NCBI GenBank assembly: GCA_030583825.1 | Contig: CP129477.1 | Location: forward strand, 318,308-382,307 | Source of the DNA: Candidatus Dojkabacteria bacterium | GTDB taxonomy: Bacteria; Patescibacteriota; Dojkabacteria; GCA-002793355 | Direction: 5' to 3' | DNA: 64,000 nucleotides | Shown: positions 6,622 to 62,369 of the stretch, piece after piece | Layout: every line of letters begins with the position of its first letter | Position numbering within the stretch: the stretch's first letter is position 1 | Position numbers and translations under genes: made by a program | The notes under the pieces: generated by a model | Told to the model about the DNA's origin: nothing | The model's input: only the letters and a program-made list of their open reading frames with translations | Databases searched by the model: none

Positions 6622-7188
6622 ATGCAGGAAATCGAAGTAAAAATCCTCAACATTGATGTAGAAGCCACCCTTTTGCAACTTCAGCAGCTTGGAGCCACAT
6701 TTGTCGAAGAAAAAAATCTTTCTGCGATTCTCATTGACACTCCCCGACGCGACTTATCAAAAAGAAACGGATCTCTCCGCCTCCGCCAGGAAAATGACAC
6801 CTGTTACTTGACGTTCAAAGCTTTCGGAGGAAAGCAGCAGTTCAAAAACTTGAAAGAAACAGAAATTATTGTTTCAGACTTTCAGCAAACAAAAAATCTT
6901 CTCGCAGCGATCGGCTATTCCAATATTTACCGTTCTTACCAGAAAAAGCGTTTTGAATTTACGCTGGGTAATGCCACAATTTGTATTGATAAGTATATTA
7001 ACGATCTATCGCATATTCCTGTATTTATGGAGATCGAGACACATAGCGAGGCAGACATGGTGACCGCGCTACAAACATTGGGTATTGAGAAATCTCAAGC
7101 AAAACACTACTCACTGAGTGATCTTTTAAGGATGTATAAACCGGTGCCGAAGCCTATAGAGGAAATGGAGCCGTATTCTGATTACTAA
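6622..7188 (+). CDS. CYTH-domain protein (class IV adenylate cyclase / triphosphatase fold)
   Basis: N-terminal EIEVK motif, R-x-R and C-terminal ExE (FMEIE) motifs; leaderless (TATAAT + 7 nt + ATG). Confidence 0.65.
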   Translation: MQEIEVKILNIDVEATLLQLQQLGATFVEEKNLSAILIDTPRRDLSKRNGSLRLRQENDTCYLTFKAFGGKQQFKNLKETEIIVSDFQQTKNLLAAIGYSNIYRSYQKKRFEFTLGNATICIDKYINDLSHIPVFMEIETHSEADMVTALQTLGIEKSQAKHYSLSDLLRMYKPVPKPIEEMEPYSDY

Positions 7189-7195
7189 CGTCATT

Positions 7196-7432
7196 CATCT
7201 TCAAAAAAGGAAGTACTCGGTTGCTTAACGCTCACAAGTTCGCTACAACCTGCGTGCCTTTTCCTCAGATTCATTCCGTTTTAAGTAGTGATTTCTATCC
7301 GCTTTTACTATCAAACGTAGAATTCACCGCCTCATCTTCGCTCCGCGTCAAACGTATAACAGCCTTTTCTTCAGATTCACTCCGTTTTAGTCTGAGACGC
7401 TTATTCACACTCACTCCGTTTTAGGACACCTT
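7196..7432. repeat. intergenic repeat element, copy R1 (roughly 75-nt conserved core plus degenerate CTC(A/G)CTCCGT sub-repeats)
   Basis: 7203-7280 is the near-exact reverse complement of 34990-35065; related copies at 27350, 38300, 49550 and 54975. Confidence 0.8.
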
Positions 7433-8089
7433 TTTATCCTTGGATTGTTTTTCCAGATCGAGACGCAGGGAGTAAATTGCAGGAATAATAATTATTGCAA
7501 ATATTGCGCTGAAGAATATGACGAGGCGCAACATCATCGGCAGAAATATGCTCAAAAATGTGACAATACCCGCAATGACAATAACTTTTCCGCCAAAACG
7601 ATGAGTTTTGTTCCAATTTTCTTCATCTGCAAGTGTCCATGGCAAGCGAATTCCTACAAAGTAATTTTGTGGAAACTTTCCCATCATATTTCCCAAGAAA
7701 ATCAGAAGCAATGACACTCCTGCCGTAATCAAATCGCCCACATTTAGGGCAACTCCAAGAGACGCAGCATATACCACACCGATAACGCCGGAAATCACGA
7801 GAAGAAGGCACAAGCGCAACATTCGGTAACTATCCAAGAACATAGCATAACTCTTTCTTTTTGGGTCGAAAAATGGGATAAAAAGCAGCAAAAAGTACAT
7901 TCCTACAGCAAGGCCGCTGAGCATTAGTACATTCTGTAATCGTGGCATATATCCATCAACTTCGCCGGCAACATTCCAATGACTAGGCATAATTTCGGGG
8001 AATTTGGGATACAACACAACGCTTGCGATAATAACTGCCGCAACAAGTAGTAAATGCGGCCATTCTTTTTTCCAGTCTACTTTGTACAT
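7421..8089 (-). CDS. SdpI/YhfL-like immunity-type membrane protein (DUF1648 N-terminus)
   Basis: N-terminal IMPSHWNVAGEVDGY motif (DUF1648-like), multiple TM helices, downstream of an ArsR-family regulator as in sdpR-sdpI. Confidence 0.6.
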   Translation of the reverse strand: MYKVDWKKEWPHLLLVAAVIIASVVLYPKFPEIMPSHWNVAGEVDGYMPRLQNVLMLSGLAVGMYFLLLFIPFFDPKRKSYAMFLDSYRMLRLCLLLVISGVIGVVYAASLGVALNVGDLITAGVSLLLIFLGNMMGKFPQNYFVGIRLPWTLADEENWNKTHRFGGKVIVIAGIVTFLSIFLPMMLRLVIFFSAIFAIIIIPAIYSLRLDLEKQSKDKKVS

Positions 8090-8135: not shown

Positions 8136-8561
8136 CTAACCATCAGTCGTAGGTTCAGGATTATTAATCGTTATTTCCGTAACTTGGACGGTGATAGGAG
8201 CTTGCCCTTCGCGGTCTGAATCGGCTTCAAGACTTGTTTCCATCTCGATACCGCGGAGCTTTTCTACTCGTGCTTCACGATTTCCACTGCTTCCCTTTTT
8301 CCCAAACATATCGAACATAACTTCGGCAACTTCTTCAAAGACACTTTGGTTCAACGAATAAATAATATGCTGCTTATCCCGTTGTGTCCTGACCAATTCC
8401 GCAACCCGCAACGTTTGCAAATGATGGGTTAATGTTGGCTTTGTGATATCAAAATGGATAATCATATCGCCCGGAGTCATATCGTTTTCTTTGAGCATTT
8501 TAAGGATTTTGCGACGAATGGGATCTGAGAGTGCTGTGAATACATCTTTTATTTTTGCCAT
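8136..8561 (-). CDS. ArsR/SmtB-family transcriptional regulator (SdpR-like)
   Basis: winged HTH (DPIRRKILKML…LTHHLQTLRVAELV); a palindromic operator overlaps its promoter. Confidence 0.8.
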   Translation of the reverse strand: MAKIKDVFTALSDPIRRKILKMLKENDMTPGDMIIHFDITKPTLTHHLQTLRVAELVRTQRDKQHIIYSLNQSVFEEVAEVMFDMFGKKGSSGNREARVEKLRGIEMETSLEADSDREGQAPITVQVTEITINNPEPTTDG

Positions 8562-8573
8562 GTTTCCGTATTT

Positions 8574-8606
8574 ATTAGATTGTTAGATAGTTATCTAAAT
8601 ATCTAA
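8574..8606. promoter_or_regulatory. palindromic operator-like element ATTAGATTGTTAGATAGTTATCTAAATATCTAAT (nested inverted repeats TTAGATA/TATCTAA)
   Basis: located 13-45 nt upstream of the ArsR start codon; a 23/24-nt match occurs at 28257-28283. Confidence 0.55.
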
Positions 8607-8651
8607 TTGTATAAAAGAACAGGCTGAGAGTCAATATTCTCTGTTTTGTTG

Positions 8652-27349: not shown

Positions 27350-27535
27350 GCTCCCATTCGAAAAAAAGAGTACTCGACTTTAAACGTACATAAATGTACT
27401 AAGTCTGCGTGCTTTTTTTCTCATACTCGCTCCGTTTGACGGTGCGAACTATTACTAATAAATGTTCTGTATTAAAAATTTCGCCTCACCTTCGTTCCGT
27501 ATCAAAAATTTCCTACCGATTCACTGTCATTTCTT
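27350..27535. repeat. intergenic repeat element, copy R3
   Basis: shares the blocks AGAGTACTCG, CTGCGTGCTTTTT, CTCGCTCCGT and ATTTCGCCTCACCTTCG(T/C)TCCG with R1, R2 and R4. Confidence 0.7.
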
Positions 27536-27947
27536 AACCCAGCTTTGATGTGATTAATGATTTATCCCAATCCAGTGTAAGTGGTGAAAGGAGTTTCATG
27601 AGCTCAATGCCGGCGACTGTTTCTACTGCTCCGTTCATAAATACGCACGATACTTGTCCAAGGTTTCTGACCAATTGGGAATTTTCCTGCTCGACAACTG
27701 AGAGATCTACAAGAAATGTAAATGCGGAAACTGTCCGTTCATCTGCAAGTACCATTGTGCTCAAAAAGCCGTCCGTAAATCTAAATTGTGGCAACAACGT
27801 TTTTGGAAATGCAATCCCTAACGAAAATCCGGTATCAAGCAGTAAGTCATACTTTTTCTTGTGAGGAAGCACGAGTTCTCCTGACAAACGTGGGTGATCA
27901 GCCTGGCCAAAACTAAGTGATAGTGACGAAAATGTGAGCGTATTCAT
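27534..27947 (-). CDS. retropepsin-like (clan AA) aspartic protease domain protein
   Basis: LLLDTGFS motif resembling the D-T/S-G-A active site; 137 aa. Confidence 0.45.
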   Translation of the reverse strand: MNTLTFSSLSLSFGQADHPRLSGELVLPHKKKYDLLLDTGFSLGIAFPKTLLPQFRFTDGFLSTMVLADERTVSAFTFLVDLSVVEQENSQLVRNLGQVSCVFMNGAVETVAGIELMKLLSPLTLDWDKSLITSKLG

Positions 27948-27950
27948 GGT

Positions 27951-28175
27951 CTAGGATCTTCGACGTTTTTTAATCCGTTGTGCAGTCCGTCGGTCAATAA
28001 TGACGACATCTTTCACTTTCTGCTTTTTGGAAAGCTTCTTGACTGCGTCAGGAAGCGATGACCCCACCGCACGTTTACGAGTCTTTATATCATAGACTGC
28101 GACATTCCAGTCTTTTTTCAGGCTGTTCACGTAGGAAATAAAGGATCTAAAACCTGAGTAAGGTCGTTTATGCAT
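27951..28175 (-). CDS. small basic hypothetical protein (start set at ATG 28175, after TATACT + 6 nt; the ORF track begins at TTG 28214)
   Basis: leaderless pattern; Lys/Arg-rich C-terminus. Confidence 0.35.
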   Translation of the reverse strand: MHKRPYSGFRSFISYVNSLKKDWNVAVYDIKTRKRAVGSSLPDAVKKLSKKQKVKDVVIIDRRTAQRIKKRRRS

Positions 28176-28256
28176 ATTCTCAGTATAGCACTTTTCTCCG
28201 TTTGTGACTTGCAAATGACTCGGTAAAGATACGATTTAGCAGTCTTGGGGGACAAT

Positions 28257-28283
28257 AATTAGATAAGTATCTAACAATCTAAC
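28257..28283. promoter_or_regulatory. second copy of the palindromic operator-like element (TTAGATAAGTATCTAACAATCTAAC)
   Basis: 23/24-nt identity (in reverse complement) to the element at 8574-8606 upstream of the ArsR gene. Confidence 0.5.
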
Positions 28284-28305: not shown

Positions 28306-29391
28306 CTACTTCTTTTTCTCGCCCATAACTGCGTTCCATTTGTTCATCATCAGAGAACCAACAGCCCAACAGCTTAATCCTGCGCCAAGAACAAATACGA
28401 AGAATTCGCCAACGACTGGAACCAAGGATAGAACAAAGAATCCAATAGTCACAGTAAGCACACCAACGACAATCGGCTGCAAGCGTCCGGTATTTTTGCG
28501 GTTAAATCGTTTCAAAATGAGGCGGCCTACTCCATACGTGGCAAGCACATTAGAAAGCATGACTGTGACAAGTCCAAGGACAACTAGAACATACAATAGA
28601 TGCCAGCCAATAATACTGATTGCAAGTGCAATTGCGAGAATAAAGCCTAAGACATATGTCGCTGCTCCAGCGACAACCGACTGAAATGGCATTTTCTGCA
28701 TTGTAACAAGCGCGTTTTCTGAAATGACCGGGAATAATCGTAAGATCAAATATGCCGAAATAATTGTACCAACAAGCATAATTGTATTGAAAATAAGTGC
28801 TCCAACGGTTACTTTTCCTAATAGCTTTTTATCTGTTTTTCGTTCATTATCGCGGTAGTTTCCAACCATAACTCTGTACTGAGACACGTCTTTTGTTGGA
28901 TTTTCGACATCTCGTCGCAGTGAATCCGAATTCGGGATCATTTCAATTCCCCCAATAGAAAGACCTTTTGCAAGCTCAGTTTTTCCTGCACTGACAACAA
29001 GATCACCAGTAACCTGTTTCGAGTTTACAAACACTTGTCCGCCAAATACACGAATATCTCCACTGACATCTCCGTTTACAACGACATATCCTCCCGCTGC
29101 GGCAATGTCTCCGCCGACATTTCCATCAATTTGGACGGTTCCACCGGCCACGAGCACGTTTCCGTTTACATTGGCCGAAATATGAATATTACTTCCCGCG
29201 GCAACGACATCACCAACAACATCTTCTGTGATAGAGACATCCTGATCGGCCTTATATACATTTTCAGTCTGCTGCTGATACAACTCAATGTACGGCTCAG
29301 CTTGACCATTTGCAGCAACTACCGGAACAAAAGCAAGTACGATTGCCCCTGCGACCGCTGCGATCCCCCACAGTTTGAATGAAGTTTTCAT
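28306..29391 (-). CDS. membrane protein with a signal peptide, an extracytoplasmic beta-helix-like repeat domain (bactofilin/DUF4097-like GDV/GDI repeats) and a C-terminal polytopic TM domain
   Basis: repeats VGDVVAAGSNIHISANVNGNVLVAGGTVQIDGNVGGDIAAAGGYVVVNGDVSGDIRVFGG; 5-6 C-terminal TM helices. Confidence 0.5.
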   Translation of the reverse strand: MKTSFKLWGIAAVAGAIVLAFVPVVAANGQAEPYIELYQQQTENVYKADQDVSITEDVVGDVVAAGSNIHISANVNGNVLVAGGTVQIDGNVGGDIAAAGGYVVVNGDVSGDIRVFGGQVFVNSKQVTGDLVVSAGKTELAKGLSIGGIEMIPNSDSLRRDVENPTKDVSQYRVMVGNYRDNERKTDKKLLGKVTVGALIFNTIMLVGTIISAYLILRLFPVISENALVTMQKMPFQSVVAGAATYVLGFILAIALAISIIGWHLLYVLVVLGLVTVMLSNVLATYGVGRLILKRFNRKNTGRLQPIVVGVLTVTIGFFVLSLVPVVGEFFVFVLGAGLSCWAVGSLMMNKWNAVMGEKKK

Positions 29392-34851: not shown

Positions 34852-34904
34852 TTTCTTAGTGGCTCTCAATTCTTGGGCTATTTCTCGCTATGTCTATGCG
34901 GAGC

Positions 34905-35125
34905 GATTAAAAAGTGAAAGGTACAACATATGAGTTTACCGGACACTCATGCGGAGCGAAGATTAGGCGAAATCCCAGATACGGAGTGAGGCTGAAGAAA
35001 AGGCACGCAGGTTGTAGCGAACTTGTGAGCGCCAAGCAACCGAGTACTTCCTTTTCTGAAGATGAACGAGGTTTTCGTCATACACAAAGACTTTTGTGTA
35101 CTCCTCAATAAGACCAAACCTTGCA
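34905..35125. repeat. intergenic repeat element, copy R2 (inverted relative to R1)
   Basis: 34990-35065 is the reverse complement of 7203-7280 with more than 90% identity; the small ORFs inside are repeat-derived. Confidence 0.8.
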
Positions 35126-38299: not shown

Positions 38300-38480
38300 C
38301 CGGAATACTTCACCTACCTAAAAACAGAGCGAAGTTACAGAAAAGGTACACTCTTTAAAATGGAGCGACCATGAGAAAAAAGCACGCTATAGAAACAGAG
38401 CGAAGGTGAGGCGAAATCCCAAAGTGTTTGTAGGACATATGTAGCTATCAAACCTTTGGACATTGAGACGAACCTGAGCG
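38300..38480. repeat. intergenic repeat element, copy R4 (same orientation as R2)
   Basis: contains ACAGAGCGAAGGTGAGGCGAAATCCCA, matching 34950-34985 and the reverse complement of 27470-27495. Confidence 0.7.
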
Positions 38481-60965: not shown

Positions 60966-62369
60966 ATGACTTTGAAAACAAAAATTGTGTGTACAATCGG
61001 GCCTGCAAGCTGGGATCCAGAAGTTATGCGCCAAATGATTGAAAACGGTATGAATGTCGCCCGTGTTAACGGCGCTTTTGCTGATACGGATGAACTCGAC
61101 ATGGTTCGAGCACTTGTGAGAAATGTTAGTGATTCCGCGAGCTTAATGGTTGATGTAAAAGGCCCGGAAATTCGCCTAAACAAGTTTGATGAACCAATTC
61201 CACTAAAAGTAGGTGAAACTTTCGTTATTGGAAATACTTCTCGTGATAAAATATATCCTGCAAACTATAAGGATGTATATACTTACGTAAAACCCGGCCA
61301 GCGTATCGTTATTGGTGATGGAGACGTTGAATTTGTCGTAGAAAAGATCATTGACGATCAAATGTACTGCACTGTGCAATATGGTGAAGTACTTAAGCCT
61401 GGAAAAGCAATGAATTTGCCAAACTGCGATTATACTACCGACATTTTGACTGAGAAAGACAAAGAAAACCTGCAGCATGCAATAAAAACCGGCTGGGAGT
61501 TTGTTTCTGCGTCTTTTGTGCAAGATGCTGACTCTGCCCGAAAAATTAAAGAATTTATTGGCGACGCACCTATGAAGTTAATCGCTAAGATCGAAAACCA
61601 GGCTGGAATTGACAATATTGACGAAATTCTTGAAGTTGTAGACGGTGTTATGATTGCACGTGGAGGACTTGGCGTTGAACTAGGCTTAGAAAAAGTGCCG
61701 TATATTCAAAAGCTGCTCATAGACAAATGCAATCGTCTAGGCAAGATCGTCATTACTGCAACTCAAATGCTCGAATCAATGACAACGTTGCCTCGGCCAA
61801 CTCGAGCAGAAGTAAATGATGTTGCAACAGCCGTTTTTCAAGGTACCGACGCCGTAATGCTTTCGGCTGAAAGCTCAGCAGGAAAATTCCCAATTGGCGC
61901 GGTTGCAATGCTCCACTCTATTTCTACCCAATCAGAAGACCATGTTGTACCTCAAATTATTCAATCTGATATTCCTTACGCCGAGACCGCTGATGCTCTC
62001 ACAAAAGCAATTGCCGCAATGTGCATGAGTAATGATAAGATTTCAAAAGTTGTGATTGTTTCCAAAACGGGAACAACACCTCGATTGCTGGCACGACATC
62101 GAATAAAGCAGGATATTTTCGCATATGTCAGTAACTCGTTTTATCGAAATACACTTATGCTTACAAAAGGGATTACTCAAGCATTTGTTTTTGACGGAGT
62201 CACAAGAGATAGCGATTTTTCCAGGGATGCGGCTGTTTCTCTCTTACTTGAGCAAGGAAAACGAGATAATGTATTGCAGTCCGGCGAAACTGTGCTGATT
62301 GTTGGAAAAACTCCAATGTCGGGAGAAGAATACTTTCCGAATATCTTTGAAATTGTCACGGTTTCGTAA
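60966..62369 (+). CDS. pyk: pyruvate kinase
   Basis: TKIVCTIGPAS…GMNVARVNGAF N-terminus; 467 aa with a C-terminal regulatory domain. Confidence 0.9.
   Translation: MTLKTKIVCTIGPASWDPEVMRQMIENGMNVARVNGAFADTDELDMVRALVRNVSDSASLMVDVKGPEIRLNKFDEPIPLKVGETFVIGNTSRDKIYPANYKDVYTYVKPGQRIVIGDGDVEFVVEKIIDDQMYCTVQYGEVLKPGKAMNLPNCDYTTDILTEKDKENLQHAIKTGWEFVSASFVQDADSARKIKEFIGDAPMKLIAKIENQAGIDNIDEILEVVDGVMIARGGLGVELGLEKVPYIQKLLIDKCNRLGKIVITATQMLESMTTLPRPTRAEVNDVATAVFQGTDAVMLSAESSAGKFPIGAVAMLHSISTQSEDHVVPQIIQSDIPYAETADALTKAIAAMCMSNDKISKVVIVSKTGTTPRLLARHRIKQDIFAYVSNSFYRNTLMLTKGITQAFVFDGVTRDSDFSRDAAVSLLLEQGKRDNVLQSGETVLIVGKTPMSGEEYFPNIFEIVTVS

Follow-up and report, generated by a model that had tools for sequence, protein, structure and literature searches.

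One operator can stand nearly unchanged before the same regulon in very distant phyla, as CIRCE/HrcA and the NrdR box do, and NolR of Sinorhizobium, a member of the ArsR family, has the operator (A/T)TTAG-N9-A(T/A). Here we describe a palindromic box that occurs twice, as site 1 and site 2, in a stretch of 64,000 nucleotides from Candidatus Dojkabacteria bacterium (contig CP129477.1, positions 318,308 to 382,307; hereafter the window), a member of the candidate phyla radiation (CPR), and that lies at site 1 directly upstream of an sdpR-sdpI gene pair. In Bacillus subtilis, SdpR is an autorepressor that is sequestered at the membrane by SdpI, as outlined in PMC2910880 and PMC3210768, and among the members of its very large membrane-protein family, SdpI alone is described as characterised (PMC11995493). 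Judging from sequence comparisons, we consider it probable that the palindrome is the operator of SdpR, through which the sdpR-sdpI operon would repress itself at site 1, and that site 2 is a copy that would hinder transcription into a gene pair for a small protein and a retropepsin-like protein. The literature that we searched, with curated regulon databases outside that search, contained no SdpR operator, regulog or box sequences, and an operator sequence for B. subtilis SdpR was likewise not found in it.

The two sites are as follows (neither was assigned a strand).

8575..8606: SdpR box site 1, four hexamers, candidate autoregulatory operator of sdpR-sdpI, from sequence and a position weight matrix (PWM).
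28251..28282: SdpR box site 2, three hexamers (24-mer at 28259-28282) and a degenerate fourth, inverted with respect to site 1.

An earlier note on this DNA had described a nested palindrome upstream of an ArsR-family gene. Its sequence was as described, and the full string ATTAGATTGTTAGATAGTTATCTAAATATCTAAT is 34 nt long and occupies 8574-8607, one base more at its end than had been noted. The box is built of four TTAGAT hexamers that keep an 8-bp register, TTAGAT(8575)-TG-TTAGAT(8583)-AGTT-ATCTAA(8593)-AT-ATCTAA(8601), around a symmetry axis at 8590/8591. Its core is a 7-2-7 inverted repeat, TTAGATA-GT-TATCTAA, to which one extra hexamer is added on each side, 8 bp out, giving an overall architecture of 6-2-7-2-7-2-6. 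The label of a 12-2-12 palindrome in the earlier note was therefore loose, the real form being a 7-2-7 core with direct hexamer repeats. The 24-mer TTAGATTGTTAGATAGTTATCTAA (8575-8598) has the inverted copy that had been reported 19.7 kb away; it lies at 28259-28282 on the minus strand (TTAGATTGTTAGATACTTATCTAA) and is identical at 23 of 24 positions, with the mismatch at the centre. A repeat search stretched this match to 28 nt at 93% (8575-8602 and 28255-28282; 26/28 positions). Site 2 keeps three of the four hexamers perfectly, while the fourth position is degenerate (ATTGTC). With up to three mismatches allowed, the 24-mer matched exactly twice in the 64 kb, and not once in 100 dinucleotide-preserving shuffles.

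Two inverted copies at such a distance could also be the signature of a dispersed repeat or the end of a mobile element (of the repetitive extragenic palindromic or miniature inverted-repeat transposable element type) without a regulatory role, all the more as the window holds another repeated intergenic family. We regard this as scarcely credible, because the 64 kb hold only these two copies, their flanks share no similarity, the other repeat family is unrelated in sequence, and elsewhere the box occurs once per genome and next to a promoter. A broad repeat with many copies away from promoters, which the earlier note had named as a refuting outcome, was not found in the 64 kb.

To score the sites we used a 32-nt PWM built from 51 non-identical boxes upstream of sdpR genes, at loci that had been picked by protein similarity. 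Site 1 scored 41.3 / 32.5 bits, and site 2 scored 25.8 bits in the plus and 17.8 bits in the minus orientation, compared with 8.7 bits for the next best site of the window and a maximum of 15.6 bits in 50 shuffles. Counted against the consensus, site 1 has 28/30 and site 2 has 23/30 positions, the maximum in background windows being 22/30. The recurrence of the box in two copies is real and non-random.

The operon that follows site 1 consists of these elements.

8136..8561, minus strand: sdpR, an ArsR/SmtB-type winged-helix protein of the SdpR subfamily, 141 aa, by profile matches.
7421..8089, minus strand: sdpI-like membrane protein gene, DUF1648 and SdpI domains (PF13630 1.6e-21, PF07853 3e-14).
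8606..8634, minus strand: predicted sigma-70-type promoter of sdpR-sdpI, TTGACT-17-TACAAT, 10/12 matches.
7187..7279, minus strand: terminator-like long hairpin and U-run downstream of sdpI (dG -29.5 kcal/mol, z -2.8).

The product of 8136..8561 passes the NCBIfam model NF033789 (repress_SdpR) with 104.3 bits against a cutoff of 100, also matches PF01022 and PF12840, and is 100% identical to a protein of a Candidatus Dojkabacteria metagenome-assembled genome (MAG) that is named 'autorepressor SdpR family transcription factor'. The sdpI-like gene starts 46 nt downstream on the same strand. In these respects the locus resembles SdpR-SdpI of B. subtilis (yvbA-yvaZ): the regulator belongs to the SdpR subfamily, its gene is followed by one with an SdpI domain, and the operator is predicted at the operon's own promoter, where it would serve autorepression. 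Unlike the B. subtilis system, it resides in a CPR host, its SdpI has a DUF1648 N-terminal half, a second copy of the operator lies 19.7 kb away, and its SdpR carries an acidic, low-complexity C-terminal extension of ~50 aa (8136-8300, the C-terminal third of the gene). This tail is absent from all 25 aligned relatives, including one with 75% identity. No sdpABC toxin genes or SdpC-like gene were noticed near the operon, where no dedicated search for them was made. The minus strand of 7185-7300, the segment that folds into the long hairpin with its U-run, belongs to a repeated intergenic element family that is described below.

The gap between site 1 and the ATG of sdpR (8561, minus strand) is 13 nt. 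As had been proposed in the earlier note, the box meets the -10 element of the promoter: the last bases of TACAAT are shared with the outer hexamer of site 1, which places the predicted transcription start inside the box, 13-40 nt before the ATG. With the box at and overlapping the -10 of TTGACT-17-TACAAT, autorepression by promoter occlusion is to be expected. The assignment of site 1 as an operator at the operon's own promoter that would mediate autorepression thus holds at the level of sequence.

We wondered whether this arrangement extends beyond the window, and scanned one genome per species (185,579 species) for the three-hexamer motif TTAGATNNTTAGATANNTATCTAA. The motif was found at at least 118 loci, compared with a chance expectation of ~1 match by our own arithmetic for equiprobable bases. 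In 103 of the 118 loci listed, the N-terminus of an sdpR homologue (tblastn) lay 13-155 nt downstream of the motif, the box always being upstream, and an SdpI-like gene was present in 92 of the 118. The hosts included Clostridia, Bacilli, Erysipelotrichales and Halanaerobiales among the Bacillota, at least eight lineages of Patescibacteria, and also Gammaproteobacteria MAGs, Bacteroidota, Calditrichales, Planctomycetia and others. Some matches were unrelated to SdpR, several of them inside coding regions, and two to three of the matches lacking sdpR lay at the edges of 8-kb blocks, where the gene may have been cut off.

Because these loci had been selected by the motif itself, we performed the reverse test from the protein side. 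Eighty metagenome loci were picked by SdpR protein similarity alone (42-61% identity), of which 77 had enough upstream sequence. Fifty-six of the 77 carried the box (at least 23/30 consensus positions) within 200 nt upstream of the start, and each of these 56 scored above 22/30, the maximum that 1,099 background windows of these loci reached. In gene orientation the consensus reads (-10 element)…ATAt-TTAGATA-nT-TATCTAA-AT-ATCTAA, in which the core and the gene-proximal hexamer are best conserved. The closest relative, whose SdpR is 75% identical, has TTGACA-17-GATAAT directly followed by TAGATAGTTATCTAATTATCTAA, 5 nt and the ATG, and a Bacillaceae chromosome shows the same layout with TTGACT-17-TATTAT-AT-ATTTAGATAATTGCCTAAATACCTAA. 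A profile search with SdpR sequences of Bacilli returned at least 7,998 clusters at E<=1e-8.

The position of the box relative to the promoter followed a small number of registers. A sigma-70-type promoter (at least 9/12) was found at 136 of 150 non-identical boxes adjoining sdpR genes. Relative to the core, the -10 hexamer started at -18 in 39 cases, directly before a four-hexamer box, and at -6/-5 in 58 cases, where it replaces the distal hexamer of a three-hexamer box; starts at -10 (9 cases) and -13 (6 cases) were also seen, and site 1 of the window belongs to the -13 class. The box thus always extends over the stretch between the -10 element and about +25, an arrangement that is classical for repressors which occlude their promoter. 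The proposal of the earlier note that the palindrome is an autoregulatory operator of the ArsR-family protein is strongly backed by 103 loci among the motif matches listed, by 56 of 77 loci chosen for their protein, and by the fixed position of the -10 element.

Among the proteins of the SdpR family the recognition helix S(I/L)SHHL hardly varies, which would explain why the operator is conserved. One clade (L141, L151, L163 and L185) has the helix SLSYHF, and in its boxes TTTTGA..TCAAAA replaces TTTAGA..TCTAAA (TTTTGA-N6-TCAAAA, with a hybrid in L185). This covariation of helix and operator is suggestive of direct read-out, in which residue 46 may read the fourth base of the half-site. Since the members of the clade share 79-97% mutual identity, the covariation counts as one evolutionary event, and we rejected it as an independent proof.

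The sequence data are consistent with a simple circuit at site 1. SdpR bound there, likely as two dimers given the four half-sites, would exclude or trap RNA polymerase and thereby repress its own operon; by analogy with B. subtilis, SdpI would capture SdpR at the membrane on sensing its ligand, and the operon would be released. The 141-aa translation of SdpR contains no cysteine and the protein is therefore without an ArsR-type metal site of the cysteine type, to which this reading of the sequence is confined; the inducer is presumably the protein partner SdpI and not a metal.

Compared with ArsR/SmtB repressors such as SmtB and CzrA, the window regulator belongs to the same fold family and has a similar AT-rich, imperfect inverted repeat that overlaps its own promoter, and binding of more than one dimer is plausible, as for ArsR/SmtB operators. 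Unlike their 12-2-12 operators, the box has a 7-2-7 core, and direct hexamers flank it at a register of 8 bp. The sequence neighbours of the window SdpR in the PDB were SrnR, HlyU, SmtB, NolR, BigR and CzrA (E 3e-9 to 1e-5), with the NolR structures 4omy, 4omz and 4on0 among the matches; the PDB contained no structure from the SdpR family itself. Like NolR, the window regulator would be a repressor of the ArsR type that has no metal site and recognises half-sites with TTAG, whereas spacing and symmetry differ, NolR targets nodulation genes, and NolR has no SdpI partner. With CIRCE/HrcA and the NrdR box the SdpR box shares its cross-phylum occurrence, while protein family and biology differ. 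By the comparisons made here, the window system belongs to the SdpR-SdpI family, and its predicted operator is of the ArsR type in function but not 12-2-12 in form.

The second site lies among the following features.

27951..28175, minus strand: open reading frame for a small basic protein, 74 aa, the first gene downstream of site 2.
27534..27947, minus strand: retropepsin-like protein, 137 aa, its start separated by 3 nt from the small-protein stop, motif L-x-D-T-G-F-S-L-G conserved.
28306..29391, minus strand: membrane protein with bactofilin-like repeats; its homologue in L214, one of two more distant syntenic relatives, is PF26514 (DUF8173).
28182..28210, minus strand: candidate promoter of the small-protein gene, AAGTCA-17-(TGC)TATACT, then 6 nt (gagaat) and the ATG at 28175; 8/12 and a TG extension.

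The gene layout around both sites was as the earlier note had given it, and its gene calls stood up as well: SdpR passed NF033789, SdpI had its DUF1648 and SdpI domains, and the retropepsin-like fold was recovered in a structural model of the 137-aa protein. In this protein D38 and G40 are invariant and T39 is nearly so; the AlphaFold model has a predicted local distance difference test score (pLDDT) of 91, and its best PDB matches, both with probability 1.00, were the Rickettsia retropepsin-like protease APRc (5c9b) and the protease of equine infectious anaemia virus. The family is a rare one, and 12 representatives were found among 1.84 billion clusters (P0047 and P0168-P0177 among the relatives). 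The retropepsin-like gene is paired with the small basic protein in all three relatives whose contigs were examined, and in two of these the pair is syntenic with a bactofilin-repeat (DUF8173-type) membrane protein. Homologues of the small protein occur at the same position in L209, L213 and L214; it had no family match in Pfam, NCBIfam or PADLOC. For the site 2 genes as a group, PADLOC gave nothing, Rfam no family, and PHROGs weak matches of unknown function only, and on these outcomes we rejected an explanation by a defence system, a phage or an Rfam family.

Site 2 is by its scores a statistically genuine three-hexamer SdpR box and a predicted binding site. Three-hexamer boxes form the complete sdpR operator in L210, L028 and many other genomes, so site 2 is expected to bind SdpR. 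In both sites of the window the outer hexamer is separated from the core by TG (CA on the opposite strand), a position at which the family has AT and the closest relative TT. Among 102 sites, C and A were each seen 4 times (4/102) at the spacer positions, and T was absent (0/102) from the mirror position. This shared atypical spacer indicates that one site was copied from the other, and most probably site 2 arose by duplication of site 1. It is identical in a second sample (L010).

What a bound site 2 would do is the weakest step of the proposal and a purely inferred one. The site lies between the stop of 28306..29391, which is 23 nt away, and the start of 27951..28175, both genes being on the minus strand, and no terminator was predicted between the membrane-protein gene and site 2. 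SdpR bound at this position would most likely hinder transcription entering the small-protein/retropepsin pair, either acting as a roadblock to polymerase that reads through from the membrane-protein gene or interfering with a weak promoter candidate, TTGTCC-18-TATCTT, whose -35 (TTGTCC, 28252..28247) abuts the site. A hairpin or terminator reading of site 2 itself was rejected, since the core would pair into an A/T stem of 7 bp closed by a loop of 2 nt, and the terminator prediction gave nothing at this position.

Several observations weigh against this two-site proposal. No promoter of at least 8/12 overlapped site 2 canonically in strict or relaxed scans, the best overlapping candidate reaching 7/12, and near the site the relaxed scan gave only candidates of 7-8/12. 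The strict scan missed the candidate promoter AAGTCA-17-TATACT, which lies ~70 nt further downstream than site 2. A -10 hexamer is found 5-6 nt before the ATG of the small-protein gene in three lineages (window 28173-28190; L213 640-652; L214 3652-3666), 5 nt before it in L213 (TACAAT agtat ATG) and in L214 (TACAAT tgtat ATG). The gene is thus probably transcribed as a conserved leaderless mRNA from ~28175, and site 2 would then lie at -76 to -107, which is not an occluding position. In its canonical orientation the site points into the 3' end of a convergent gene. The box is absent from both syntenic relatives, L213 and L214 (43-46% identity), on which two genomes the conservation of site 2 was judged; at its position L213 has a 45-nt spacer and L214 a GC-rich terminator. 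The available contig of the closest relative (L209, with a DTG protein of 71% identity) begins within the small-protein gene. Beyond site 2, about one quarter of the protein-selected SdpR homologues had no recognisable box or variants of it, the link to the only characterised SdpR, that of B. subtilis, runs by analogy through family membership, and the copy count and PWM scan of window DNA cover 64 kb of a genome of ~1.09 Mb.

These observations leave room for a functionally neutral site 2, that is, a recent duplicate or decoy of site 1 that may bind SdpR but alters the expression of no gene. The atypical TG spacer common to both sites, the 26/28 match between unrelated flanks, the want of an overlapping promoter, the absence from L213 and L214, and the conserved leaderless-type promoter that the small-protein gene has of its own further downstream would all fit such an origin. 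It is less easily reconciled with three hexamers that are perfectly kept, with the identity of the site in the second sample, with a terminator-less gap in which a bound protein would meet elongating polymerase, and with the secondary boxes with evident promoters that occur in other genomes. We hold neutrality to be possible but not the likely outcome, and favour roadblock or interference at site 2 only slightly over a neutral duplicate or decoy.

The orientation of site 2 raises another possibility, namely that it is a plus-strand promoter-operator cassette driving an SdpR-controlled antisense RNA over the 3' end of 28306..29391. Its PWM score is higher in the plus orientation (25.8 vs 17.8 bits), AATAAT stands at -5, where 22 family members place their -10, and its sequence aligns with the three-hexamer cassettes of L210, L028 and L031. 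The -35 is essentially missing, however (ACGATT, 7/12 overall), whereas the family cassettes have a strong one; no credible open reading frame follows on the plus strand, and there was no match to an Rfam family. We therefore consider such a cassette improbable.

It could also be argued that the palindrome is read by another factor, or is a mere shared promoter element, with SdpR a bystander gene. Two contigs point in this direction. In L084, a Saprospiraceae contig, five box-like repeats (326-550 and 1847-1878) adjoin a parA gene; they resemble iterons or the centromere of a plasmid-like element and not an SdpR site, and the box sequence is thus not exclusive to SdpR. In L061, two boxes adjoin a different ArsR-type gene. 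Still, across phyla no gene other than sdpR consistently accompanies the box, autorepression by SdpR has been demonstrated in B. subtilis (summarised in PMC2910880), the clade with a variant recognition helix has a matching operator variant, and the palindromic geometry fits a winged-helix dimer. A bystander SdpR is accordingly very unlikely in our view, and we retain SdpR as the predicted reader of the box.

Boxes at loci other than sdpR-sdpI bear on whether SdpR could control a second target. The Patescibacteria contig JBAQCS010000057.1 carries two near-identical cassettes, TTGAyT-17-TATAAT followed directly by TAGATAnnTATCTAAATATCTAA, 6.2 kb apart (L028 5340-5440 and L031 7130-7240), one before sdpR and the other before a gene for an Rce1/CPBP-type membrane protease. 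Boxes without an adjoining sdpR precede operons for ATP-binding cassette (ABC) transporters in Clostridium ihumii and Anaeromonas, where the Anaeromonas operon comes with a PLDc_N mini-protein, and, in Paenibacillus, a gene for a secreted alpha/beta-hydrolase. The box of a Bacillota contig from the human gut (L187 / L182 1831-3947) stands before a three-gene operon of a lipoprotein alpha/beta-hydrolase, sdpR and sdpI, and not immediately before sdpR. By these predicted sites, SdpR regulons reach beyond sdpRI in other genomes, and the theme of the secondary boxes is envelope and export, in agreement with the envelope-associated regulon that the earlier note had envisaged. Its further suggestion of a regulon of two loci in the window fared less evenly: it gains from site 2 being a genuine box and from the secondary boxes elsewhere, and loses from the missing overlapping promoter and from the two syntenic relatives that lack the box. 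In orthologous intergenic regions, the box was present upstream of sdpR in the closest relative, and site 2 was absent from L213 and L214. A two-locus regulon is plausible but unproven.

If the box is indeed the SdpR operator from Bacillota to CPR, it offers a testable handle that predicts SdpI-SdpR-responsive genes in any genome, and the biology of the very large SdpR/SdpI family would become readable from its regulons, such as CPBP/Rce1-type membrane proteases, ABC exporters and secreted hydrolases. Few regulatory circuits of a reduced Dojkabacteria genome can be deduced from its sequence; the window would then hold one of them, and the gene pair of the rare retropepsin-like protease would be a candidate second output. 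The broadest form of the idea is a tentative one, and we would not expect all of it to hold: a near-universal cross-phylum SdpR box, copied in a minimal CPR genome into a terminator-less gap, where SdpR would form a roadblock that depends on the signal and controls entry into a rare operon for a retropepsin-like protease. Since the circuit is an ordinary autorepressor design, its value lies in annotation and the generation of hypotheses and not in new principles.

Two further repeats were seen in the window. The repeated intergenic element family occurs at 7187-7424, 27420-27505, 34890-35075, 38350-38425 and 49579, and includes a 93-nt inverted pair (7187-7279 / 34981-35073, 90%) and clustered sub-units of ~20 nt, yCTCAyyTTCRCTCCGyrT. 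The two box-linked operons each have one of its clusters at the 3' end, two more clusters are found elsewhere, and the family had no match in Rfam. In addition, a perfect 21-nt match, AGCAGGAAAATTCCCAATTGG, is shared by the retropepsin-like gene (27671-27691) and the pyruvate kinase gene (61877-61897); it lies on the sense strand of both genes, in different reading frames, where ~0.001 chance matches would be expected in 64 kb by our own arithmetic.

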